DNA of 20,000 nt from IMG/VR virus record IMGVR_UViG_3300003375_000024. One strand, written 5' to 3'. The DNA comes from an uncultured virus (IMG/VR IMGVR_UViG_3300003375_000024). Its lineage: Duplodnaviria; Heunggongvirae; Uroviricota; Caudoviricetes. Position numbers and translations under genes: made by a program. Positions within the stretch are counted from its first letter, which is position 1, and every line of letters starts with the position of its first letter. Shown piece after piece: positions 3,038 to 17,569 of this stretch. The notes beneath the pieces were generated by a model. It was given only the letters and a program-made list of their open reading frames with translations, searched no databases and was not told where the DNA came from.

Positions 3038-3607
3038 ATTCCAAATTGGTGCCAGAATTCCTTAACGATTTCCCACAATGACCCAGCTATGATTGCCCGG
3101 GCTAGACAGGCAGTTAAAGACGACAGGTTGCTTTCTGAATTTATTCCTGTGCCACAAGAATTGGTTGATACGGTATCTGGTGGCTATGCTGACGCAGAGG
3201 AACAGCGCAAGCTAGAGGAGCAGATTGCCAAGAATCTTGAAACCTATGGATGCAAGGACTGGTATGAGTTTTGTATCAATCAATGGGGTACCAAGTGGGA
3301 TATAAATGGCGGTGAGATTGCAGGTGAAAGTGATACCAGTCTGACCATTTATTTTGAAACAGCCTGGAGCCCTCCTATTGAAGCCTATCGTAAGTTGGAT
3401 GAGTTGGGCTTTAATATTGAAGCTATGTATTACGAAGATGGTATGGCGTTTTGTGGCGAGTATACCACAGGGCATGGTGAGAACTCAATCAGTATTACTG
3501 GTGATAGTGACTGGGTTGAGGCGAATGTGCCTAGTCATATTGACGAGGCATTTGCCATTAGTGAGAACATGGCACAATGGGAAGAAGAGGACGAGGTTGA
3601 CAATTAA
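3038..3607 (+). CDS. YubB/DUF1281-like ferredoxin-fold protein; probable start at ATT 3038
   Basis: Motifs (M)PNWCQN, WYEF..NQWGTKW, FETAWSPP; GAGAGGA RBS 7 nt before ATT 3038, in frame with ORF 3089. Confidence 0.75.
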   Translation: MPNWCQNSLTISHNDPAMIARARQAVKDDRLLSEFIPVPQELVDTVSGGYADAEEQRKLEEQIAKNLETYGCKDWYEFCINQWGTKWDINGGEIAGESDTSLTIYFETAWSPPIEAYRKLDELGFNIEAMYYEDGMAFCGEYTTGHGENSISITGDSDWVEANVPSHIDEAFAISENMAQWEEEDEVDN

Positions 3608-4248: not shown

Positions 4249-4497
4249 ATGCTAAAGAATTACGTAGTATTGTATCGCATTGAAAGCGTTATGTCACCAC
4301 TAGACGCGCCGTTTGGTTTCCAGTGTTACGCTGAAGACTCCGATCATGCCGAGGAACAATGTCTTAATGCCTATGGTGACTGTGATGTCGTCTGGGTACA
4401 TCAAAGCACCCCAGATGCGGGTATGTCAGAAGCATTGAATGACTATTGGAATAATGGTATCGACGATCATAGTCCATACGGCACCATCAACTCCTAG
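4249..4497 (+). CDS. Hypothetical protein, 82 aa
   Basis: Follows previous gene by 9 nt, AAGG RBS. Confidence 0.75.
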   Translation: MLKNYVVLYRIESVMSPLDAPFGFQCYAEDSDHAEEQCLNAYGDCDVVWVHQSTPDAGMSEALNDYWNNGIDDHSPYGTINS

Positions 4498-4498
4498 G

Positions 4499-4590
4499 AT
4501 CTCAACCTAGAATCTCGGACCTAAAATCTCAACCTAGAATCTTAAACCTAGGTTGAGATTCTAATATCTCGGACCCGGATTTCGCGCGGC
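4499..4590. repeat. Degenerate 13-14 bp tandem repeat (ATCTCAACCTAGA) with one inverted unit
   Basis: Units at 4499, 4512, 4526, 4539, 4566; AATCTCAACCTAG 4525-4537 is inverted as CTAGGTTGAGATT 4548-4560. Confidence 0.85.
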
Positions 4591-5336: not shown

Positions 5337-5348
5337 TTTAATTGTCAA
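5320..5348 (-). promoter_or_regulatory. Inverted cassette copy (TTGACA-17-TAGTCT)
   Basis: GATTTAATTGTCAA at 5335-5348. Confidence 0.55.
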
Positions 5349-5409
5349 GTGGTGTTGGAGATGGGTAGCCCCGCTGTCCATCCCGGGAAGCCCCTTCGAA
5401 TACACTACC

Positions 5410-5438
5410 AGTATAACCCCTCCTGATTTAATTGTCAA
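5410..5438 (-). promoter_or_regulatory. Inverted cassette promoter (TTGACA-17-TATACT), back-to-back with forward copy 5452
   Basis: GATTTAATTGTCAA 5425-5438; AGTATA 5410-5415. Confidence 0.75.
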
Positions 5439-5451
5439 GTCAATATAGCGG

Positions 5452-5523
5452 TTGACAATTAAATTCCAGTATGCAATAATTCGTTTGTTGACGAAAGCTG
5501 TATCGCAAAGCGAAAGCTAGCAG
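5452..5523 (+). repeat. Gene-less 72-bp cassette
   Basis: Near-identical to 12875-12946 and 12947-13018; no RBS/ORF. Confidence 0.85.
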
Positions 5524-5594
5524 TTGACAATTAAATCGTAGTCGGTTACAATGTAGTTCTTGAAGCGAAACGAAGTTCTTAAGCGAGAGCAAAT

Positions 5595-5774
5595 ATGTTT
5601 ACTTACAATGAAAGCACCAAGTCGTTTGACAGTGCAACAGAATCTATCTCGCTGTATGAGATAGAGCCGAGCTTGATGTACTCGCTGGTACGCAAGAGCG
5701 CAATTAGTGTTGCTGATTTTGAGCGTTGGCTTCAGCATTGCCAAGACGCATACATAGCGTTTAAAGCGAGTTGA
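5595..5774 (+). CDS. 59-aa hypothetical protein (MFTYNESTKSFD...); not in ORF track
   Basis: Promoter 5524, GAGAG-type RBS, stop is the TGA of the next -35. Confidence 0.7.
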   Translation: MFTYNESTKSFDSATESISLYEIEPSLMYSLVRKSAISVADFERWLQHCQDAYIAFKAS

Positions 5775-5944: not shown

Positions 5945-6331
5945 ATGACCACATTGTTCAGCTTTGAAGCAGACGTTAGCGAGTTGGACCAGGCTCGCTC
6001 GGAGTATAGCGATTTTCACAAAGAAGCATTCGGCTTTCGCCCGCGCTGGGACTACAGCGCAATGACGCTCGCGGACTTTGACCGCGAGTTCGAGTATCTT
6101 GCACAAGAGTGCAAGCGCAATGCAGAACTACGCGCCGAGGCCGAGGCCGCCGCCTCAGTACGTCTTGAGCAGCGCATACTAAGCCTGCTTGAGTGTGGGG
6201 CTAAGAGCCGTGCAATGGCTCTGCGCTGGCTTGACGAAGCCGAAGGCACCAGAGGTGATGTTGACTTTCTGTGCTATTGTCTTGGTGTAGATTACGGCTA
6301 CATCAAGCAAGAAGACCTGCTTGATTCATAG
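5945..6331 (+). CDS. Phage hypothetical protein (YSDFHKEAFGFRPR motif)
   Basis: Own promoter/RBS. Confidence 0.85.
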   Translation: MTTLFSFEADVSELDQARSEYSDFHKEAFGFRPRWDYSAMTLADFDREFEYLAQECKRNAELRAEAEAAASVRLEQRILSLLECGAKSRAMALRWLDEAEGTRGDVDFLCYCLGVDYGYIKQEDLLDS

Positions 6332-6496
6332 GTCTGCCGGCCCATAGGAGAGCCCTGGTGCTCTCCCAGCCATGTGGTTGATACTAACACGTGGGTCTGT
6401 GCAAAAGCAACGCATAGGCTGTTTTAATCTCATTTGACAATTAAATCGTCAGGCTGTACAATGTAGTTCTTGAAGCAAACAACACGGAGAAAGACC

Positions 6497-6787
6497 ATGA
6501 TTTCAGCAGCCAAGCTTGAAGTGTTCACTAAAATGTCATCAGACTCGCTGACAGATATTATGCTTGACCAAGGCTACGACAACAGCGATGAGCCAATTTT
6601 GTTCACGCGGTTCAAGGGAATCAAAACACGCAGTGCGACAAAGCTTGACTTTTTGTACATCGTATCGTATCTAGACGGCCACGTTAAAGGCGGGTTAGCT
6701 GATGCGACTATCATTGTGACATATGATACAATGACAGAAAAGCTTGATGTTGAGTACGCAGATGGCAGAGAATACAACGAAGGTTAA
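6497..6787 (+). CDS. Hypothetical protein; start corrected to the ATG after the RBS
   Basis: ACGGAGA RBS then ATG 6497; track start 6470 lies inside the cassette. Confidence 0.8.
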   Translation: MISAAKLEVFTKMSSDSLTDIMLDQGYDNSDEPILFTRFKGIKTRSATKLDFLYIVSYLDGHVKGGLADATIIVTYDTMTEKLDVEYADGREYNEG

Positions 6788-6792
6788 CTAAA

Positions 6793-6809
6793 AGGGGCTT
6801 AGTGCCCCT
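6793..6809 (+). terminator. GGGGC-TTAGT-GCCCC hairpin just before a -35 (also at 7641-7661 and 13755-13771)
   Basis: Three copies with the same loop, each between a stop codon and the next TTGACA. Confidence 0.55.
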
Positions 6810-6875
6810 GCTGTTGACAATTAAATCGTCATCAGTTAATATATCAGTTCTGAAGCGAAACACACGGGGAAAGAC

Positions 6876-7052
6876 ATGGACCAAAAAGTAGAGCAGTTGC
6901 TAGAAGTGCAAGCGTTACTTCAGCAAGCTATTTACAAGCTGGGCAAAGTGGGCCTCAGGCGTGAGCGTGGCTATCGCACTAAAATGCACGACTTAGTGTT
7001 AGCAATAAATGCTGAGATTGAGAGCCTGCCCCAAGTAGAGCTTGACAATTAA
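6876..7052 (+). CDS. 58-aa helical hypothetical protein; not in ORF track
   Basis: Promoter 6814, ACGGGGA RBS, ends ELDN*. Confidence 0.75.
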   Translation: MDQKVEQLLEVQALLQQAIYKLGKVGLRRERGYRTKMHDLVLAINAEIESLPQVELDN

Positions 7053-7104
7053 ATCGTAGTGTGCGACAATGTAGTTCTTGAAGCAAACGACACGGAGATC
7101 TAAA

Positions 7105-7269
7105 ATGGACCGAATTCAAAAGCTTGAGCAAGTCAATCGCCTCTTGACTATCGCTCATGAGTTACTTCACGACAATGACGAGAAAGCTCTTGCTGACCAA
7201 TTGATTGACGTGATGGATGAAGTCAATGAAGTATTGTACGAATTAGAGCGTGACCCGCTTGACGATTAA
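7105..7269 (+). CDS. 54-aa helical hypothetical protein
   Basis: RBS then ATG 7105; ends LDD* in a TTGACG cassette variant. Confidence 0.75.
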   Translation: MDRIQKLEQVNRLLTIAHELLHDNDEKALADQLIDVMDEVNEVLYELERDPLDD

Positions 7270-7292
7270 ATCATAGTCGAGTACAATGTAGT

Positions 7293-7356
7293 TGTGGCCC
7301 AGTCGTGAGAACGCTTCACGATGCCGCGGATGACCGGGCCTCCGCTAACTCTCTGA
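7293..7356 (+). ncRNA. Candidate small structured RNA in a gene-less cassette
   Basis: Promoter 7259 without RBS/ORF; pairings GGCCC/GGGCC, TCGTGA/TCACGA, GCGGA/TCCGC. Confidence 0.35.
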
Positions 7357-7424
7357 CAGCATCGCTTGACAATTAAATCAAGCGATGCTATAATTCTTTT
7401 ACTGAAACGAAACGGGAGAAATTC

Positions 7425-7637
7425 ATGAAGACAGCAACGGTGCGAGGCGGTACAGTCAAGATTGGTGACTACGTTAGTTTTAAGAGCGACTATGAGCAAT
7501 GCGGGAAAGTCGTTGACATTAAAGACGCATGGGGTGGCACAATGCTAGTGCTTGAGAATGAGAACGGCTTCGGGGGCGATTATCTACAGTATGCTACTCG
7601 CACTCAAGAGATGGCTAGCGACTGCTGGGTAGAGTAA
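7425..7637 (+). CDS. Hypothetical protein, possible SH3/KOW-like barrel
   Basis: Own promoter/RBS; KIGDYVSF...GKVVDI. Confidence 0.8.
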   Translation: MKTATVRGGTVKIGDYVSFKSDYEQCGKVVDIKDAWGGTMLVLENENGFGGDYLQYATRTQEMASDCWVE

Positions 7638-7722
7638 CTAAAGGGGGCTTAGTGCCCTCTTGCTTGACAATTAAATCGTCGTATGAGATAATTCTTTTGT
7701 CGAAACGAAACGGAGAAAGACC

Positions 7723-7920
7723 ATGACTAACGAACAATTCGCTAAAGCATACGAAGCCTACTTAGAGCAAGGTGGTCGTGTGATTGTACTTAAAGCTGCT
7801 AAGCCCCGTAAAGAAGAGCGGTGGTTGTCTAAGCGTTATACTATCGCTAGCATGGGCAATCTAAAGTCCCGTCTCACAGGTATCTCTAGTGTTGACAGAG
7901 TTAAAGACGGTACTGCTTGA
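7723..7920 (+). CDS. Basic hypothetical protein, 65 aa
   Basis: Own promoter/RBS; stop is the TGA of the next -35. Confidence 0.8.
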   Translation: MTNEQFAKAYEAYLEQGGRVIVLKAAKPRKEERWLSKRYTIASMGNLKSRLTGISSVDRVKDGTA

Positions 7921-7974
7921 CAATTAAATCAAGTGGGGCTATAATAGCCCTACTGAAACGCAACGGAGAAAGTA

Positions 7975-8154
7975 ATGCAGACTAAATCGAAAAACCCTAT
8001 CCCACGCAACGGGCTGTTTGCTGAAAAGACTCTTGGCGAGTTACAAGAGTACATTGAGCAGATGTCGGCTAAAGAGAAGGCTTTTGCTTACATGATTATG
8101 ACAATGACAATGAATTCTTGTCATCGTCTTGTAAACGAAGCAGAAACCGTGTAA
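7975..8154 (+). CDS. 59-aa hypothetical protein; not in ORF track
   Basis: Promoter 7917, ACGGAGA RBS, ATG 7975, TAA 8152-8154. Confidence 0.75.
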   Translation: MQTKSKNPIPRNGLFAEKTLGELQEYIEQMSAKEKAFAYMIMTMTMNSCHRLVNEAETV

Positions 8155-8158
8155 TCAG

Positions 8159-8176
8159 GCGGGGGTTCGCCCCCGC
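8159..8176 (+). terminator. GC hairpin with TTCG loop abutting the next -35
   Basis: GCGGGGG-TTCG-CCCCCGC. Confidence 0.55.
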
Positions 8177-8239
8177 TTGACAATTAAATCGCTGTCGTTT
8201 ACAATGTAGTTCTTGAAGCAAACAACACGGAGAAATACC

Positions 8240-8578
8240 ATGGGTTATGTAGACAACGCTGAGTTCAGCAACACCGACGATATGATTGATAGCGTGAACA
8301 ATATCGTTCACAATCATGTGCAGAATATGCGTCAGGTGGGCGCGGTGGAGCTTGGCCTAGATCGCCGGTGTGGGTCAGCATGGGTCAATGACGATTACAT
8401 CGTTACAGATGCCGGTAGTCGATTTGACTACTATGCAGGTTTCGAGTATGTAGACGCCGATGACATTCGCGTGGTTGGTGAATATAAATTCTATTCACGA
8501 CATTCAAGTCGTATCGCTGATTGTCTTGAAAATCTGGCAGAGGCAGACGGGTTGTGTGAGTCAGAGCTTGACAATTAA
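8240..8578 (+). CDS. Hypothetical protein; start corrected
   Basis: RBS then ATG 8240; ends LDN*. Confidence 0.8.
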   Translation: MGYVDNAEFSNTDDMIDSVNNIVHNHVQNMRQVGAVELGLDRRCGSAWVNDDYIVTDAGSRFDYYAGFEYVDADDIRVVGEYKFYSRHSSRIADCLENLAEADGLCESELDN

Positions 8579-8630
8579 ATCAGTATCGTCTACAATGTAG
8601 TTCTTGAAGCGAACAACACGGAGAAAGACC

Positions 8631-8858
8631 ATGACTAATGACCAGAAGCTGGCAGTAAAAGCAATTCATGAGCTTAGCTCGTTGGCAGCTGACTTCAAGA
8701 TGGGCATCATAAGCAACGATTACATTCGTGCTCAGCTGTTCAATGCGTTTGTTGGCATTGGCCTTGATGCGCCAAAAGTCGTAAAAGAAATTAAGTCCGC
8801 TATGCAGAACTGGGGCGAGTATGATGACGAAGAAGAAGAAGACGAGCGGGTCGCTTGA
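8631..8858 (+). CDS. Hypothetical protein with acidic tail; start corrected
   Basis: RBS then ATG 8631; stop is the TGA of the next -35. Confidence 0.8.
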   Translation: MTNDQKLAVKAIHELSSLAADFKMGIISNDYIRAQLFNAFVGIGLDAPKVVKEIKSAMQNWGEYDDEEEEDERVA

Positions 8859-8917
8859 CAATTAAATCAGTATCGTTTACAATGTAGTTCTTGAAGCAAA
8901 CAACACGGAGAAATACC

Positions 8918-9106
8918 ATGACTGACTTTAACGCACAAGATTATCCCGACGGTGTAGAAGACGATCAGTACGAAGTCACCGGCTGTGCTGAGGGCGAGGA
9001 AGAGTATGACTACGACGATAGCATGGATGGCGACTGGGACTCTGCCATGGCTTCGGCAGGGTTCGGTACCGACGAAGACTACGGCTTCGCTGACGAAGTT
9101 TATTAA
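8918..9106 (+). CDS. Extremely acidic 62-aa protein (SAMASAGFGTDEDYG motif)
   Basis: RBS then ATG 8918; Asp/Glu-rich with no Lys/Arg. Confidence 0.8.
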   Translation: MTDFNAQDYPDGVEDDQYEVTGCAEGEEEYDYDDSMDGDWDSAMASAGFGTDEDYGFADEVY

Positions 9107-9182
9107 CTAGTATGCGCGAGGTTGACAATTAAATCAACCTCGCGTACAATGTAGTTCTTGAAGCAGACAACGGAGAAAGACC

Positions 9183-9278
9183 ATGCGTGAAAAGACAGCT
9201 GAAGACCTACGTGTACTTGCTGAACTCAAAGCAAAATTGTACACAGCATTACTAATGGCCCGCTTACAACGAGGTTGA
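9183..9278 (+). CDS. 31-aa peptide; not in ORF track
   Basis: Full cassette with RBS; MREKTAEDLRVLAELKAKLYTALLMARLQRG*, stop in the next -35. Confidence 0.65.
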   Translation: MREKTAEDLRVLAELKAKLYTALLMARLQRG

Positions 9279-9337
9279 CAATTAAATCAACCTCGCGTAC
9301 AATGTAGTTCTTGAAGCAAACAACACGGAGAAATACC

Positions 9338-9667
9338 ATGATTACAGTAGATCAAGTTCTAGTCGCAAAGCAAGCCGCAGTCCAGGCCTCTAACGAGTAT
9401 TTCATGACACACCTCAAAGGCCGCGATACCGGCGCGTGTGGGTTCGCATGGGTTGAAGTGTACGTTGACCGCACTAACAGCAAGCAGGCGCAAGAGCTGA
9501 TCAAAGCCGGCTTCCGTAAAGACTACAAGCCCAAGTGCCTGTCGATGTGGAATCCCGGTGAGCTTCGTGCTCAGAACATTGACGCCAAAGATGCTGGCGC
9601 TAGACGCATGGCTGCAATGCTTGCGAATCTTGGCTTGAAGGCCTACGCTGGCTCACGACTAGACTAG
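9338..9667 (+). CDS. Phage hypothetical protein (GACGFAWV motif); start corrected
   Basis: RBS then ATG 9338. Confidence 0.85.
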   Translation: MITVDQVLVAKQAAVQASNEYFMTHLKGRDTGACGFAWVEVYVDRTNSKQAQELIKAGFRKDYKPKCLSMWNPGELRAQNIDAKDAGARRMAAMLANLGLKAYAGSRLD

Positions 9668-11831: not shown

Positions 11832-11995
11832 AAGTCCAATTCACCGCCTACGAACCAGGCACTGGCAACATCCTAGCCGAGGGTATCAGTACCATTCCAG
11901 GTAGTACCAATTGTTGGCAGGCAGAACAGGCCGTTCGAGCCATGTACAACGGCCTAGAAGTCTGTATCCGGAGTTCAACTCCATTCTACAACTAA
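11816..11995 (+). CDS. 59-aa hypothetical protein (MPVRVEVQF...); not in ORF track
   Basis: AAGGA RBS, overlaps previous gene end, TAA 11993-11995. Confidence 0.7.
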   Translation: MPVRVEVQFTAYEPGTGNILAEGISTIPGSTNCWQAEQAVRAMYNGLEVCIRSSTPFYN

Positions 11996-11996
11996 C

Positions 11997-12127
11997 ATCT
12001 CGGACCTAGAATCTCAACCTAGGATCTTAAACCTGAAATCTCAACCTCAAATCTCAACCCTAGATTTCAAACCTAACATTTCGCATCCAGGTTTCGCATC
12101 CGAATTTCGCGCCCGCATTTCGTACAC
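11997..12127. repeat. Ten 13-14 bp tandem units drifting from ATCTCAACCTAG to ATTTCGCATCC
   Basis: Units at 11997, 12011, 12024, 12038, 12051, 12064, 12078, 12091, 12104, 12117; homologous to 4499-4590. Confidence 0.85.
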
Positions 12128-12526: not shown

Positions 12527-12712
12527 ATGGTTAAGCTATCAGATATTCAGGTGGGCTCACGGGTAATGGTCCGCGGTTGTTTCGGTATGGATGAGCCGGT
12601 TAAGGCCACAGTCACAGAAGTATTCGAGGAAATCAAGAACGGTAAGCCGGGAATCACCTATGATAATTCCTGGGCCTACCTCAACCAGGTGGTCCAGGTG
12701 GTGGAATACTAG
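12527..12712 (+). CDS. Hypothetical protein, possible SH3-like; start corrected
   Basis: AAGGAGA RBS then ATG 12527. Confidence 0.8.
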   Translation: MVKLSDIQVGSRVMVRGCFGMDEPVKATVTEVFEEIKNGKPGITYDNSWAYLNQVVQVVEY

Positions 12713-12833
12713 GACCGGGCCGCCAGGCCTGGGATCCAACCACCAGGCCAGCCGCCAAGGCCGCAGCCCCACCGCCAGGAGCGGAAGCGGGCAGGACCAA
12801 ACGCCGCCCTCGCGGAGGAGGTCAGCAATTTAT

Positions 12834-12862
12834 ATTGTACACGATAATGATTTAATTTGCAA
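12834..12862 (-). promoter_or_regulatory. Inverted cassette promoter (TTGCAA-ATTAAATC...-TACAAT), back-to-back with forward copy 12875
   Basis: GATTTAATTTGCAA 12849-12862; ATTGTA 12834-12839; 17-bp spacer. Confidence 0.7.
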
Positions 12863-12874
12863 GCAAAATCTCAG

Positions 12875-13018
12875 TTGACAATTAAATCATCGTATGAGAT
12901 GATTCGTTTGTCGAAGAAAACTGTATCGCTAAGCGAAAGTTAGTAGTTGACAATTAAATCGTAGTATGCAATAATTTGTTTGTTGACGAAAACTGTATCG
13001 CAAAGCGAAAGCGACTAG
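12875..13018 (+). repeat. Two tandem gene-less 72-bp cassettes
   Basis: -35 starts at 12875, 12947, 13019, exact 72-bp period; shared CTGTATCGC(A/T)AAGCGAAAG. Confidence 0.9.
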
Positions 13019-13091
13019 TTGACAATTAAATCGTAGTATGCAATAATTCAGTTTCTGAAGTTAAACGAAGTTTCTTAACAAGCGAGAAATT

Positions 13092-13325
13092 ATGCGTAAA
13101 GTATCTCAGACAGCAGCACAGATTTTAGATTTAGCAGACACGCACTACTCTACGACTATGACGTTTAGCGATGCTGATAGCGTGTCAAGTCGCAACAACA
13201 CGACAGTATCAGAATGGTTTTTGTTGTCAAGTGATGACGCTGAAGTGACAATTAAAATTGTCGAAGATAGCGAGCGCAATACTGACGACTATGTATCGCT
13301 TAGCGTGATAGTCGAGCGATTCTAG
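13092..13325 (+). CDS. Hypothetical protein, 77 aa, no Gly or Pro
   Basis: Promoter 13019; AAGCGAGA in place of the GGAG RBS. Confidence 0.75.
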   Translation: MRKVSQTAAQILDLADTHYSTTMTFSDADSVSSRNNTTVSEWFLLSSDDAEVTIKIVEDSERNTDDYVSLSVIVERF

Positions 13326-13409
13326 CAGTAAAAAGTAGAGCTTGACAATTAAATCGTCAAGCTCTACAATGTAGTTCTTGCAGCGAAACACTTAACAAGA
13401 GAGTGAAAC

Positions 13410-13748
13410 ATGAAAACAGATTACACTTTAGTCGAAGTACAGAGCATTTCCGATTCGTACTACGGTTGCTTTATCGTGAATGATCGTGATGCTGACATCA
13501 AGCTGAGCGATTTGCTTGCGAACGAACGCACTAGCATCTTTTTGTTCGAGTGTCAAGACGCATACTGCGAAGTGCGAATGACGAATCCGCTAGACGAGGA
13601 GGACCAAGAGTGTGACGTTGCGCTAGTGTCGAGCGTGACTGTGCTAAGCAAAGAGCAGTATGCTGAGCGCCAGCGCACCATCGACGCGGCGCGCAAGCGT
13701 GATCGTGCAGCAATTGCTGCGCTGCAAACGCTGATCGTAGTCGAGTAA
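13410..13748 (+). CDS. Hypothetical protein, 112 aa
   Basis: Promoter 13342; AAGAGAG RBS. Confidence 0.75.
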   Translation: MKTDYTLVEVQSISDSYYGCFIVNDRDADIKLSDLLANERTSIFLFECQDAYCEVRMTNPLDEEDQECDVALVSSVTVLSKEQYAERQRTIDAARKRDRAAIAALQTLIVVE

Positions 13749-13849
13749 GCTAAAGGGGGCTTAGTGCCCCCGCTAGTTGACAATTAAATCGTAGTATGCA
13801 ATAATTCAGTTTCTGAAGTGAAACGGTTCTTAACAAGTGAGAGCGAAAA

Positions 13850-14128
13850 ATGCGTAATACTTTCAACGCCAGCAATGTCCTGTTCGTCAAAGTCGCAGTC
13901 AAGAAAAACTTAGACGCTAAGTTTCTCGCAGTGACAGCAGATAACTTCGAGTCGTTCAATGCTAAAAATGCTTTATACTATGCTACTCTTAGCGCAGCGT
14001 CACTCTACGCTGATCTCATTAAGCAAGTTTTAGTGTTACAGAACGCAAGTAACACAAAATTAGTTAAGTTAATCTTAACTAAGCAAGTCGAGAAATTGCT
14101 CGAAAAGAACAGCGAAGTAACAGCGTAA
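13850..14128 (+). CDS. Hypothetical protein, 92 aa, no Gly/Pro/Trp
   Basis: Promoter 13777; GAGAG RBS. Confidence 0.75.
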   Translation: MRNTFNASNVLFVKVAVKKNLDAKFLAVTADNFESFNAKNALYYATLSAASLYADLIKQVLVLQNASNTKLVKLILTKQVEKLLEKNSEVTA

Positions 14129-14234
14129 AACACACGCTGTAAGCGCATTAGAGAGCGTATGCGCTCTTTAATGCGCGAGTTGATAGTAGCGTATGCGTTT
14201 CAGTTTAAAGCGCATACAGAGCGTTTAAATCGAT
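14129..14234 (+). repeat. Structured intergenic element (copies at 14989-15096 and, diverged, 6332-6433)
   Basis: CTGTAAGCGCA(T/C)TAGAGAGC...GCTCTTTA(A/G)TGCGC.AGTTGATAG...TACAGAGCGTTTAAATCG shared by the two desert copies. Confidence 0.8.
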
Positions 14235-14391
14235 TTGACAATTAAATCGTAGTATGAGATGATTCGTTTGTTGACGCAGCAAACGAAGCGCAGCGAAGTG
14301 AAGTGCAGATAGTGCTTGACGATTAAATCGAAGTAGTTTAAAATGTAGTTTCTGAAGTTAAACGAAGTACTCTTAACAAGTGAGAGCGAAT

Positions 14392-14988
14392 ATGTTTACA
14401 TCAATCGACGCAGTTGCAGTAAAAGCAAAGCAAGACGCAGCAACGAATTTTCTCAGCGCAAGCGACATTAGCGCAGCACTGCGAGCAGGAACTAACTTCG
14501 CTAACATCGAATACTGTGTTGAGCTTAACACTAGCGCAGCGAATCGTGCTGTTAAAATTCGCAAAGCTGTACGCTGCAACGCTCAGTTATTCGCAAGCAT
14601 TAAAGATTACGATTTGTATCGTAAGCAAGTGCTGCGCTCAGCAAGCAAGCTCAGCGAGTCAGAAATCACTGACTTCGTAGTAAGCGAAACTTACTTCGAG
14701 CACACAGATTGCTTTAGCATCGTGCAACACAAGAAAGACGCTGCTAAGCAATACTTGTATGCGATCTATAATCGTGCTGAGTCAGTAATCTTTGTTGACG
14801 ATGTTGAGTCTACTAAAGAATACGCAGCATCGTTCATGACTAAAAGTGACGCAGCAAAGCTGCTAGACGATAGCAAGTTAGTCTATAACAAGACTAACGA
14901 CGTAACGCACGACGTAACTCTGCGAGTGCTGACGCTGAGCAACATCGTAGAAATGACAGTCAACAAGCAAGTGCTGACTGTATCGTAA
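14392..14988 (+). CDS. Hypothetical protein, 198 aa, with one Gly and no Pro/Trp; start corrected
   Basis: Promoter 14316 (TTGACG-17-TAAAAT); GAGAG RBS then ATG 14392. Confidence 0.8.
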   Translation: MFTSIDAVAVKAKQDAATNFLSASDISAALRAGTNFANIEYCVELNTSAANRAVKIRKAVRCNAQLFASIKDYDLYRKQVLRSASKLSESEITDFVVSETYFEHTDCFSIVQHKKDAAKQYLYAIYNRAESVIFVDDVESTKEYAASFMTKSDAAKLLDDSKLVYNKTNDVTHDVTLRVLTLSNIVEMTVNKQVLTVS

Positions 14989-15096
14989 AACGCACTCTGT
15001 AAGCGCACTAGAGAGCTGCTAACGCTCTTTAGTGCGCTAGTTGATAGCAGAGCATCACTTTACGATTTGAACGCTTACAGAGCGTTTAAATCGTTC
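14989..15096 (+). repeat. Second copy of the structured intergenic element
   Basis: 15-bp stem 15002-15016/15024-15038 with a compensatory change relative to 14143-14176. Confidence 0.8.
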
Positions 15097-15221
15097 TATT
15101 TAATTGTCAAGCGATTCCAAAAACTGGGACACCGTGGTGTTGTTTTTTAGCTACAATACAAGCTTACTTTAGTGCTGTCGCGCCAAACAAAAAGTGCGTA
15201 AACCTATTTTCTATGGTTGCC

Positions 15222-15302
15222 TCGTGGATTACGGTAGGTTACGGTAGATTTCCGGATATCCGGTAGGTTACGGTAGGTTATCGTGGATTACGGTAGCTTA
15301 CG
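15222..15302. repeat. 10-bp-period tandem repeat (TTACGGTAGG)
   Basis: ACGGTAGGTT, ACGGTAGATT, CGGTAGGTTA x2, CGGTAGCTTA, with TCGTGGATTA twice. Confidence 0.85.
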
Positions 15303-15386
15303 CCGGAGCTAGGGCAAAGGTAGAAAAACGGTATTTTCAAAAACCGGAATAAAATTTTTTCCAGGATCCCGGTAGATTTTTGGTCT

Positions 15387-16106: not shown

Positions 16107-17150
16107 ATGAGATATAAAGAATTCGCTATAGAGAGTTATGAGTTAGATGAAGAGATTAGTCTATCAAAATATGATTCTGAAGTTAAAAAAGTTATTCAAA
16201 CAGGAATTGTTAAGGCATTAAAAGATGTGTACGAATCCTACTGGGCTGATGACGACGAATACGAGAATAGTAAAAAAGAATACAACAAGGGAAATACAGA
16301 AAAATTCTATAAATTAATGGAGGTAGATCTTTTAAATCATGTAGCATACGAGGTAAATGATGCATTATACGTGTTAGGATATAGAATCGAACCCGCATTA
16401 CAGGAGATAGACTCTAAATTACTTAATGATAATATAGGCGGATATGCTAAAGGTTATGAAATAGTCATGAATAGAAGTGTCATGGTAAAGATAACTTCTT
16501 TAATCTGTAAAGTAATAAAAAATAAGGTAGAGAAAAAATATGTAATCGGAGAATTACTAAAGGGATTGTATTCAGTGGTAGAGGAAATGATTGAAAATGG
16601 CGGGGNAGATTTATTAGAGTTCAGTGATTTAAAGAAGGCTATTAATGAATATGCCGGTACATTTATACATGAATTAGTCCATATAATCCAACATGCACGG
16701 CAAAAGCATAGAGGCGGTAAATTTGAATTTCGCAGTCATCTTGACAAAGAAAAAAATGAATTTGCTAAGTTAGCAAGAAAAAATAGTGTATTTCCTAGTG
16801 ATGACTCGGCTTCATCTCCTAAGTTATCCAGGGAAGAACAAGCAAGATACTATGATTTATACCTTGCCAGTACTGCGGAAATAGCTGCCCATGCTCACAA
16901 TATTGCGCTAGGTATAATACGTAGGTATGCGTTAGAACAACCAAGGCCGATTAAAAGTTCGTACATAAATGTAGGTAACAATGCTCTTAGGGATATAACT
17001 CGTCTAATTGACGAATATCTAGATAAACGATATAAAGGTAAAACAGATCCCAAGGTTCAGGCAGTATATAAACGATATCATAAGTTAGTGTATCAAGAAG
17101 TATATAAACAGATACAAGATACTCTTAAGACAGCTAACTTTAAGGCGTAA
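16107..17150 (+). CDS. Protein with HExxH zinc-metallopeptidase-like motif, possibly virion-associated
   Basis: FIHELVHIIQH and downstream EIAAHA; late promoter upstream; one ambiguous base at 16606. Confidence 0.7.
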   Translation: MRYKEFAIESYELDEEISLSKYDSEVKKVIQTGIVKALKDVYESYWADDDEYENSKKEYNKGNTEKFYKLMEVDLLNHVAYEVNDALYVLGYRIEPALQEIDSKLLNDNIGGYAKGYEIVMNRSVMVKITSLICKVIKNKVEKKYVIGELLKGLYSVVEEMIENGGXDLLEFSDLKKAINEYAGTFIHELVHIIQHARQKHRGGKFEFRSHLDKEKNEFAKLARKNSVFPSDDSASSPKLSREEQARYYDLYLASTAEIAAHAHNIALGIIRRYALEQPRPIKSSYINVGNNALRDITRLIDEYLDKRYKGKTDPKVQAVYKRYHKLVYQEVYKQIQDTLKTANFKA

Positions 17151-17360
17151 TTATTTATTCCAAAGTAGGGCAAACATAGTAGCCCTACTTTCATCGTCAC
17201 TATAGAATCTAAAGTGTATTTCCTTCAGATTACCCATAAAGCTCCAATCAAAGTCTTTACTATGCACTAGACCGTTTTCCTTGCACCAGTTACTCATTTC
17301 AATGGCACGTTTAGAGGCATATAACTGAGCATCTTTATAGGGTATTTTAACTATAATCAT
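17151..17360 (-). CDS. Small paralog-family protein (C-terminal F...A.MFAL.W)
   Basis: Clear paralog of 17357-17569. Confidence 0.85.
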   Translation of the reverse strand: MIIVKIPYKDAQLYASKRAIEMSNWCKENGLVHSKDFDWSFMGNLKEIHFRFYSDDESRATMFALLWNK

Positions 17361-17569
17361 TTATTCCACACTAGGGCAAACATACTGGCCCAGCTTTCAC
17401 TATCACCGTAAAATTTAAACTCTATCTCATTGTCATCAGGATGGTATGACCAGCTATAGTCAGTATGATTAACCAGTCCCTGTTGCCTACACCATATACT
17501 CATTTCAATGGCATTGTTTGCTGCAGGGCCATGCCTAACAAATGGTATTTTAACCAGGGCTGTCATCAA
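17357..17569 (-). CDS. Small paralog-family protein
   Basis: AIEMS.WC...GLV...D..WS...EI.F.FY...ES.A.MFAL.WNK shared with neighbour. Confidence 0.85.
   Translation of the reverse strand: MMTALVKIPFVRHGPAANNAIEMSIWCRQQGLVNHTDYSWSYHPDDNEIEFKFYGDSESWASMFALVWNK

Follow-up and report, generated by a model that had tools for sequence, protein, structure and literature searches.

The first-step-transfer DNA of phages T5 and BF23 is the motif-free leading DNA of viruses that enter their host stepwise. A motif-free leading region has also been described in the Autographiviridae (PMC12455610), and phages of Pseudomonas aeruginosa that are targets of type I-F CRISPR-Cas show a mild depletion of the CC protospacer-adjacent motif (PAM) over the whole genome (PMC12174588). 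The endoribonuclease RegB of phage T4, for its part, requires that its GGA be followed by 11 nucleotides (nt) of A-rich single strand (PMC1702504). Here we analyze a 20,000-nt stretch of DNA (hereafter, the window) from an uncultured virus of the Caudoviricetes (IMG/VR record IMGVR_UViG_3300003375_000024), in which a 2.3-kb island almost free of the dinucleotides GG and CC contains genes preceded by an unusual Shine-Dalgarno (SD) element, AAG-N-GAG. We judge this split SD to be a by-product of a strong dinucleotide ban. A literature search for GG/CC-free gene units found no paper describing them.

The island resembles each of these systems only in part. As with T4 RegB, early messages with GGAG and an A-rich tail in an unstructured leader appear beside messages devoid of the target (PMC1702504), but the specificity of the enzyme accounts neither for the loss of CC nor for the recoding of open reading frames (ORFs) seen here. 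As in PAM depletion, the same dinucleotide is under-represented on both strands of phage DNA (PMC12174588); here, however, the loss is near-total, extends over ~0.6-3 kb and is tied to one gene family, whose sister clades also ban GA/TC. Nor is it spread across the genome in the manner of a PAM, being confined to 2.3 kb, with observed/expected (O/E) ratios of ~1 in the flanks and in the rest of G001, a related IMG/VR contig of 33.7 kb with 72-92% nucleotide identity to the window. With stepwise-entry DNA the island shares a small host-transcribed early gene set lacking a word that is present elsewhere in the genome, as well as strong tandem host-type promoters at the start of the set (here at 12875, 12947 and 13019). 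It differs in that the avoided word is a dinucleotide, shunned at the cost of three amino acids, and in that the island closes a 15-kb early array on its downstream side, the window continuing past both sides of the island.

The earlier note on this DNA had claimed that the SD changes from GGAG before the genes starting at 13092, 13410, 13850, 14392 and 5595, and all five indeed carry AAG-N-GAG. They are listed here with the energy of the duplex predicted by ViennaRNA duplexfold with an assumed E. coli-type 3' tail of the 16S ribosomal RNA:

13080-13086, + strand: AAGCGAG, 5 nt before the ATG at 13092; duplex -4.7 kcal/mol, bulged
13397-13403, + strand: AAGAGAG, 6 nt before the ATG at 13410; duplex -7.9 kcal/mol
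13835-13841, + strand: AAGTGAG, 8 nt before the ATG at 13850; duplex -5.8 kcal/mol
14378-14384, + strand: AAGTGAG, 7 nt before the ATG at 14392; duplex -5.3 kcal/mol
5581-5587, + strand: AAGCGAG, 7 nt before the ATG at 5595; duplex -5.4 kcal/mol

The split form is strictly associated with GG/CC depletion of the gene that follows. Among the 42 genes called on the + strand, those whose ORF has a GG/CC O/E of 0.3 or less are precisely these five, and 5/5 carry AAG-N-GAG without any GG at positions -20 to -4 (the SD zone). By contrast, 36 of the 37 other genes have GG in that zone, 31 of them as GGAG, and none has the split form (Fisher exact p = 1.2e-6 over the 42 genes); the single GG-less exception, the gene at 3089, lacks a recognizable SD, and its start is uncertain. 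Since the five window leaders are homologous, they do not represent five independent events. The word AAG-N-GAG is not over-represented in the window as such (8 matches versus 9.9 expected from shuffles), its non-random aspect being its placement 5-8 nt before these start codons. The same partition extends to nine close relatives: in the 71 non-redundant promoter-linked cassettes found in them and in the window, those with normal O/E all have a GG-containing SD (42/42) and those with low O/E all have the split, GG-free one (28/28), the remaining cassette, borderline with an O/E of 0.32, having a split SD. In all nine relatives the border of the island is exactly where one SD type gives way to the other. 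On other phage contigs sharing the -35 motif, the 31 leaders with a recognizable start all have, in our own reading of the listing, GG-containing SDs, at O/E values of 0.66-1.2. The comparison of cassette leaders with local GG/CC content, which the earlier note had advised, gives split sites in 5/5 versus 0/37 genes in the window and 28/28 versus 0/42 cassettes when the relatives are included, and the split form, whose equal frequency in GG-rich parts would have told against the note, occurs in none of the 37 ordinary genes. Its GG-free cassette subfamily is likewise real and possesses its own type of -10 box, leader and leader hairpin.

The motif amounts to AAGGAG with a single inserted base, C, A or T but never G, that breaks the GG. 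AAG and GAG are invariant in 25/25 distinct leaders of the clade, whereas the base between them varies among T, C and A from one orthologue to another; a G at this place would recreate GG. In each island leader the predicted duplex pairs AAG and GAG (3+3) and leaves the middle base as a 1-nt bulge. The energies of the five split leaders (-4.7 to -7.9, mean -5.8 kcal/mol) compare with a median of -6.6 and a mean of -6.4 kcal/mol for the other 37 leaders (Mann-Whitney p = 0.08), and their spacers of 5, 6, 7, 7 and 8 nt compare with the 5-8 nt of most GGAG leaders. In the window clade, the GG ban is thus predicted to be met at a small pairing cost, with initiation largely preserved, and we infer that AAG-N-GAG works as an SD. 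Like a canonical SD, it is a conserved purine-rich element, complementary to the 16S tail, located 5-8 nt before ATG and with an energy in the range of GGAG sites; unlike it, its complementarity is split by one unpaired base and includes no GG. The idea of the earlier note that selection against GG outweighs optimal pairing therefore fits the window clade poorly, little pairing having been given up there, and finds its support in the distant relatives described below. Its further claim, that the SD independently supports a constraint at the DNA level, has to be corrected because the SD is located in the transcript and cannot on its own show such a constraint.

The GAG half of the motif also takes part in a predicted fold, of which the example before the last island gene is the following:

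14370-14386, + strand: predicted leader hairpin with 5' arm CTCTT, loop AACAAGT and 3' arm GAGAG, the 3' arm being the GAG half of the split SD

Equivalent hairpins are predicted in the other four window leaders (e.g. at 13072-13088), the leader of 5595 keeping the stem with a 4-nt loop, and a 5-bp stem is common to 25/25 distinct leaders (YNCTT, loop AACAAGN, GAGNR; 89% of cells pair). Exchanges occur at two of its pairs (U-A in 21 and A-U in 4 leaders; C-G in 13, U-A in 2 and U-G in 2), and its covariation score was reached by 0/500 shuffles, while slid controls give none. This covariation rests on only about two independent compensatory events, and shuffled sequences fold as well as the hairpins do (z -0.8 to +0.1). 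The stem may be an operator or a modulating structure, compatible with SD function.

The island in which four of the five split sites are found, its main elements and its outlying copy are arranged as follows:

12821-15116, both strands: GG/CC-poor island ('desert') with seven promoters, four genes and GG/CC-free terminators
12713-12862, - strand: left border, a very GG/CC-rich variable repeat block (38 sites in ~108 bp) that follows, in its direction of transcription, a leftward promoter whose -35 is at 12862
12875-13047, + strand: sigma-70-type promoters at 12875, 12947 and 13019, in tandem with a period of 72 nt; those at 12875 and 12947 lack an ORF of their own
13092-13325, + strand: gene for 77 amino acids (aa) with 1 GG/CC site (a Trp codon); O/E 0.05; ratio of nonsynonymous to synonymous substitution rates (dN/dS) 0.13-0.22 against 4 orthologues
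13410-13748, + strand: 112-aa gene with 9 GG/CC sites; O/E 0.20; dN/dS 0.18-0.27
13753-13772, + strand: canonical GGGGG/CCCCC terminator hairpin, common to the cassettes at 6785 and 7635 (repeat family D11)
13850-14128, + strand: 92-aa gene without Gly, Pro or Trp; O/E 0.09; dN/dS 0.08-0.15
14392-14988, + strand: 198-aa gene, the conserved anchor of the island, with 1 Gly and no Pro or Trp; O/E 0.02; dN/dS 0.09-0.22
15062-15094, + strand: GG/CC-free terminator-like hairpin at the right edge, a 15-pair stem followed by a T-run, with a paralogue at 14162-14232 (D13)
5446-5774, + strand: outlying GG/CC-poor cassette with tandem promoters at 5452 and 5524, a split SD and a 59-aa ORF (5595-5774)

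Only 22 GG/CC sites occur in the 2296 bp of the island, versus ~182 expected at the mean rate of the window, and 8 of the 22 belong to one terminator hairpin; the longest runs without any site measure 629, 609 and 396 bp (median gap 7). GG and CC have been lost about equally, with 10-11 sites each (O/E 0.09 and 0.13), while GC and CG are in excess (1.84 and 1.57) and base content remains near normal (G 22.7% versus 24.4%, C 19.5% versus 21.2%). The ban on GG/CC in codons explains the near absence of Gly, Pro and Trp from the island proteins, at 0.4% each compared with 6.5, 3.1 and 1.6% elsewhere. It acts on nucleotides and not on amino acids, since GG/CC is also avoided across codon junctions (8/538 in the island versus 335/3037 elsewhere) and in synonymous choice, which shuns GCC (1 versus 75), ACC (2 versus 65) and TCC (1 versus 21). 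Promoter spacers follow the same trend, 0/7 containing GG/CC in the island versus 19/34 elsewhere (p = 0.01), so that every layer is subject to the exclusion: the spacers of promoters, leaders, codons and their junctions, and most terminators. In a control set of 189 viral loci, mostly fetched via chance matches to a 14-base promoter word, a 400-bp stretch with at most 2 GG/CC sites at G+C > 35% was found only in L001 and L187, both from the same contig, G001. The outlying cassette belongs to repeat family D8, being 74-84% identical to 12869-13072, and appears as a segmental copy whose ORF has an O/E of 0.28; a homologue of this 59-aa cassette lies inside the island in the relative L227.

The borders of the island show further structure. 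The left-border block is made of CCAGGCC-like repeats of varying copy number, conserved with variable length in L219, L220, L223 and L226, and could possibly correspond to a G-rich small RNA or to a Pro/Gly-rich + strand ORF. The 3' regions at 14124-14232 and 14984-15094 are paralogous (D13, D15) and form long hairpins of GCGC-type stems, terminator-like but without GG/CC. Just right of the island, at 15224-15309, a GGTTACGGTAG-like repeat with a 10-bp period occurs in six overlapping copies, which resemble iterons or an array of binding sites (D10).

The nine close relatives, from independent assemblies, all contain this island, its left border again coming after their homologue of the gene at 12527-12712, and a sequencing or assembly artefact was set aside on this ground. 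Two island blocks could be aligned between the window and L001, with 234 and 116 substitutions; L001 keeps 1 and 2 GG/CC sites in them, whereas the same substitutions placed randomly would produce 44 +/- 5 and 27 +/- 4 sites, none of 2000 simulations being as low. In G001 the island has an O/E of 0.02, versus ~1.0 over the other 32 kb of the contig. These comparisons indicate that long-lasting purifying selection, and not history, keeps the island poor in GG/CC.

The proteins encoded in the island are conserved as well. In all 16 comparisons of the four genes dN/dS lies between 0.08 and 0.27, with dS reaching ~1-1.9, which implies translated genes under purifying selection and speaks against the possibility, named in the earlier note as refuting, that these ORFs are not translated; as synonymous sites are under the ban too, the true ratios should be lower rather than higher. 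Orthologues of the 112-aa gene, the least depleted of the four in the window, have 0-1 GG/CC sites (O/E 0.00-0.03). Neither the four island proteins nor the 59-aa protein had a match in Pfam or PHROG, and a sequence profile search against the PDB to identify the island proteins gave 0 hits. The 198-aa protein is modeled with confidence by AlphaFold2 (pLDDT 90, pTM 0.83), but the best Foldseek match of this model in the PDB had an E value of 0.19, and the best structure alignment (VIA-align), with small beta-barrels of WYL, Sm and YaeO type, reached a Z of 4.6, below a meaningful level. Its matches in BFVD are all uncharacterized phage proteins, and the best score in a protein atlas search, 0.77, was below that of a useful lead.

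This 198-aa protein has 36 homologues; in a family alignment the invariant residues include His104, Thr105, His173 and Arg178, and Cys107, His113 and Lys114 are nearly invariant. At the DNA level its family comprises 42 distinct genes, all with a GG/CC O/E below 1 (0.00-0.87) in flanks near 1. In the fragments G001 and G004-G006 the region of the family gene is the only strong desert, and the island is anchored on this family of jumbo-phage genes. When the family is placed on a maximum-likelihood tree (41 rows, L253 being left out for its doubtful start), at least 3 changes are required to account for the strict deserts, which occur in at least 3 clades. Two rule sets can be recognized from the gene sequences. 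The window clade bans GG/CC only (GA/TC O/E 0.8-1.0), whereas a stricter rule excludes every G-purine and pyrimidine-C step (GG, CC, GA and TC): the family genes of L198 (5971-6489), L199 (5935-6501) and L209 (5872-6537) have zero of all four dinucleotides and a GC O/E of ~3, and their proteins (172-221 aa) contain no Asp, Glu, Gly, Pro or Trp. In L199 the strict rule spans ~3 kb and several cassettes, and it is partly followed in L197, L204, L205, L257 and L228.

The SDs of the family genes vary with the degree of depletion. At O/E values of 0.05 or less, 10/10 genes have no GG in the SD zone, seven having AAG-N-GAGAG and three only AAAGT(A/G); these three, all distant relatives, have almost lost their SD (-0.1 to -1.9 kcal/mol). 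At 0.07-0.18, 3/4 genes keep GG only in the SD and 1/4 is split, and above 0.3 a GG-containing SD is present in 27/28, the exception, L195, being an artefact of taking the first ATG, since its second ATG follows ACGGAGA. These differing outcomes across the family imply that lineages resolved the conflict between ban and SD in different ways, and their variety in the distant relatives is the best support for the trade-off perceived by the earlier note. Because GAG cannot be written under the stricter rule, only AAAG is left before ATG, which fits AAG being the part of the SD common to both rule sets.

Two other features of these contigs can be mentioned. The sole GG/CC sites of the L199 island lie at 5640-5745, 6590-6665 and 7405-7430, in repeated intergenic AGAGGGAC and GGGACGC..GTCCC elements that could be hairpins or protein-binding sites. 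Several contigs of 17-162 kb (L202, L207, L208, L203 and G001) start or stop inside the family gene or island or within ~1 kb of it, which could reflect the end of the DNA molecule, a hypervariable site or an assembly that broke at repeats.

We consider it rather probable that the split SD is a response to a GG/CC ban imposed by a reader of this dinucleotide step, in the following way. The 2.3-kb block at the downstream end of the array and its displaced copy at 5446-5774 would be kept almost free of GG/CC on both strands because some factor present in the infected cell reads GG/CC, or G-purine/pyrimidine-C in the sister clades. This factor would most likely cut or modify DNA, and a start-up gene set, anchored on the conserved 198-aa protein, would have to escape it. 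The ribosome site would obey the same ban, GGAG being replaced by AAG-N-GAG, which would pair as a bulged 3+3 duplex at normal spacing. While we infer the existence of the reader, its action at the level of DNA is favored, with the SD alone being no proof of it. The equal loss of GG and CC and the cleared promoter spacers point to DNA, though read-through RNA would still be compatible with both. Moreover, near-total removal implies that each single site is costly, which fits cleavage or a lesion better than PAM avoidance.

Several observations weigh against this explanation. Given the shared ancestry of its five leaders, the window alone amounts to about one event, and the conservation of the GAG half, predicted to be paired within the leader hairpin, may partly owe to structure. 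The pairing energies were computed with an assumed E. coli-type 16S tail, from which that of the host may differ. The rest of the phage has normal GG/CC, with GGCC- and CCAGG-type words even in the immediate vicinity of the island, so that simple restriction or PAM avoidance fails to explain why this unit only is protected, unless the island DNA acts first or alone, as in stepwise entry, in which case restriction avoidance could work. The residual GG/CC of the terminator hairpins, base-paired in RNA, would also fit a reader acting on RNA. Finally, the depth of the Logan contigs across the island is normal and gives no hint of unusual DNA, and no RNA run is listed as containing the stretch.

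Escape at the level of RNA is the alternative closest to the known biology of T4: a factor reading GG in single-stranded RNA, such as a RegB-like endoribonuclease cutting GGAG in ribosome sites or a CsrA-like GGA-binding repressor, would hit the ordinary early messages, whose unstructured leaders combine ACGGAGA with an A-rich tail, whereas the GG-free ones would stay translatable for longer. The 31 ordinary leaders with GGAG (out of 37) mostly continue with AAAGACC or AAATACC and are weakly folded (-2.6 to -3.5 kcal/mol), a configuration that no island leader has; in the single-gene deserts of relatives the depleted stretch is the transcription unit, and the surviving GG/CC sites lie mostly in terminator stems, where they are paired. 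Yet CC has been removed as thoroughly as GG, both in the island (10-11 sites each) and in L198, L199 and L209 (0 and 0), and promoter spacers have been cleared too, which makes this alternative unlikely in our view. REGB_T4 of Pfam had no match among the 53 proteins of the window nor in five related records, the latter search being uninformative since no control genome matched either. GAGAG might also have been kept mainly as the 3' arm of a stem-loop for a translational regulator or for message stability, the ribosome being recruited via other features. The presence of the stem in all 25 leaders, its two-sided exchanges at two pairs, unmatched by shuffles, and its persistence with a 4-nt loop before 5595 speak for such an operator; the small number of independent compensatory events, the weakness of the stems, which fold no better than shuffles, and the spacing and complementarity of AAG and GAG to the 16S tail, which fit an SD, speak against it, and we give it only a minor chance. 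It does not exclude a GG/CC ban, with which it is compatible. There is also a small chance, in our estimate, that the reader is the 198-aa protein itself, or a partner made with it, as an enzyme or binder acting in nucleic acid on the GG/CC step (G-purine/pyrimidine-C in the sister clades), whose own unit is written without its target. Under coupled transcription and translation, the nascent protein would meet its own gene and message first, and the two rule sets would be two specificities. That the rule set follows the protein clades is compatible with this self-reader and equally with host-specific readers. TGT-family (DpdA-like) transglycosylases (PF01702) and QueC (PF06508), which would indicate 7-deazaguanine modification, were found in 0/5 related records, two of them 92% and 99% complete but only mildly depleted, while controls were positive in 14 and 13 of 14 genomes.

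Two explanations would do without any reader. In the first, an ancestral AAG-N-GAG leader was copied together with its promoter as cassettes duplicated, and the SD is a family mark not shaped by the ban. The 25 distinct leaders do have the hairpin and the type of promoter in common, with a mean column identity of 72% in their alignment, and the cassette at 5446-5774 is a segmental copy. However, the inserted base has changed among T, C and A between orthologues, never to G, while dS is near saturation; the unrelated leaders of L198, L199 and L209 also lack any GG, whereas the less strictly depleted L197, L204 and L205 keep it; and the SD switch coincides with the island border in all nine close relatives. 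We hold descent only to be improbable. In the second, GG and CC disappeared without selection through a context-specific mutational process, such as the deamination of cytosines at CC of either strand. The strand symmetry would fit a DNA-damaging process, and the contexts of known cytosine deaminases resemble pyrimidine-C, the step avoided in the sister clades. Against it, the island has kept almost the same content of G and of C, the dinucleotides in excess are GC and CG and not TG/CA, purifying selection acts on the proteins, and the sharp edges are conserved across relatives with dS ~1, so that a mutational origin seems highly improbable. Other candidates were set aside: hypermutation, as base composition is unchanged; avoidance of Gly, Pro and Trp at the level of codons or tRNAs, rejected because codon junctions and non-coding DNA are also cleared; avoidance of ultraviolet-induced dimers, TT not being depleted and TC being allowed in the window clade; and avoidance of Rho loading via pyrimidine-C, which would explain one strand only.

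The reshaping of ribosome sites in GG/CC-free genes suggests, in preference to these alternatives, some reader of the two-letter step. A ban that removes three amino acids from conserved proteins (five in the sister clades) and redesigns the SD would imply a powerful and so far undescribed step reader in infected cells, and finding it could expose a general layer of phage-host conflict or of phage self-control. AAG-N-GAG illustrates how initiation can persist under such a ban with a compact element, one inserted base away from AAGGAG, and the 198-aa family offers natural folds built from a 15-17-letter amino-acid alphabet. The new elements here are the jumbo-phage clade, the split SD, the single conserved anchor gene and the stricter G-purine/pyrimidine-C rule.

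The island is part of a long array of small genes. Between position 1 and ~15100, the + strand carries 43 copies (with at most 2 mismatches) of a near-consensus sigma-70-type promoter word, each followed by a -10 box, and 36 of the 43 have an ATG-started ORF of at least 30 aa within 40-110 nt downstream. To the right of the array lie minus-strand genes, including those for a ClpP-family protease and a Zeta/AAA-type kinase-like protein. The window can be read as an array of early genes from an uncultured jumbo phage of fresh water, with most promoters driving one small gene; the jumbo-phage reading follows from the 9% completeness (CheckV) of G001 and from the size, 327-353 kb, of contigs that carry more distant relatives of one of the island genes. 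The window stretch is present in freshwater and lake metagenome runs, and in four DNA runs the Logan contigs span the island with a depth that is not unusual, being interrupted where the promoters repeat. Searches of INPHARED with the island and the whole window (blastn, megablast) gave no match, nor did tblastn with the 198-aa and 347-aa proteins, while a 135-aa array protein had tblastn matches scattered over large phages, uninformative as to affiliation. Rfam at E <= 1 and a tRNA scan gave 0 matches each.

Within the array, the GG/CC content varies outside the island as well: thirteen consecutive cassettes at 5945-9667 have intermediate O/E values (0.46-0.75) and ordinary GGAG sites, and those before 5336 and after 9746 mostly range from 0.8 to 1.4. 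Four promoters, at 12875, 12947, 5452 and 14235, have no ORF of their own; each forms a tandem with the next promoter, located 72-81 nt downstream, and precedes a conserved segment, ...CTGTATCGCAAAGCGAAAG.... On the minus strand at 5348-5440 there are two leftward copies of the promoter word. The leftward transcript from 5438 would carry a GGGATGGAC..GCG..GG element, without match in Rfam, that recurs after promoters on the phage contigs L160, L162 and L175 and is a candidate small RNA. Arrays of ~13-nt ATCTCAACCTAGA-like repeats (repeat family D9) separate cassettes at 4493-4585 and 11978-12110. At 17148-17569, finally, two adjacent paralogous small minus-strand genes are 73-77% identical over repeats 206 nt apart (D12, D14).

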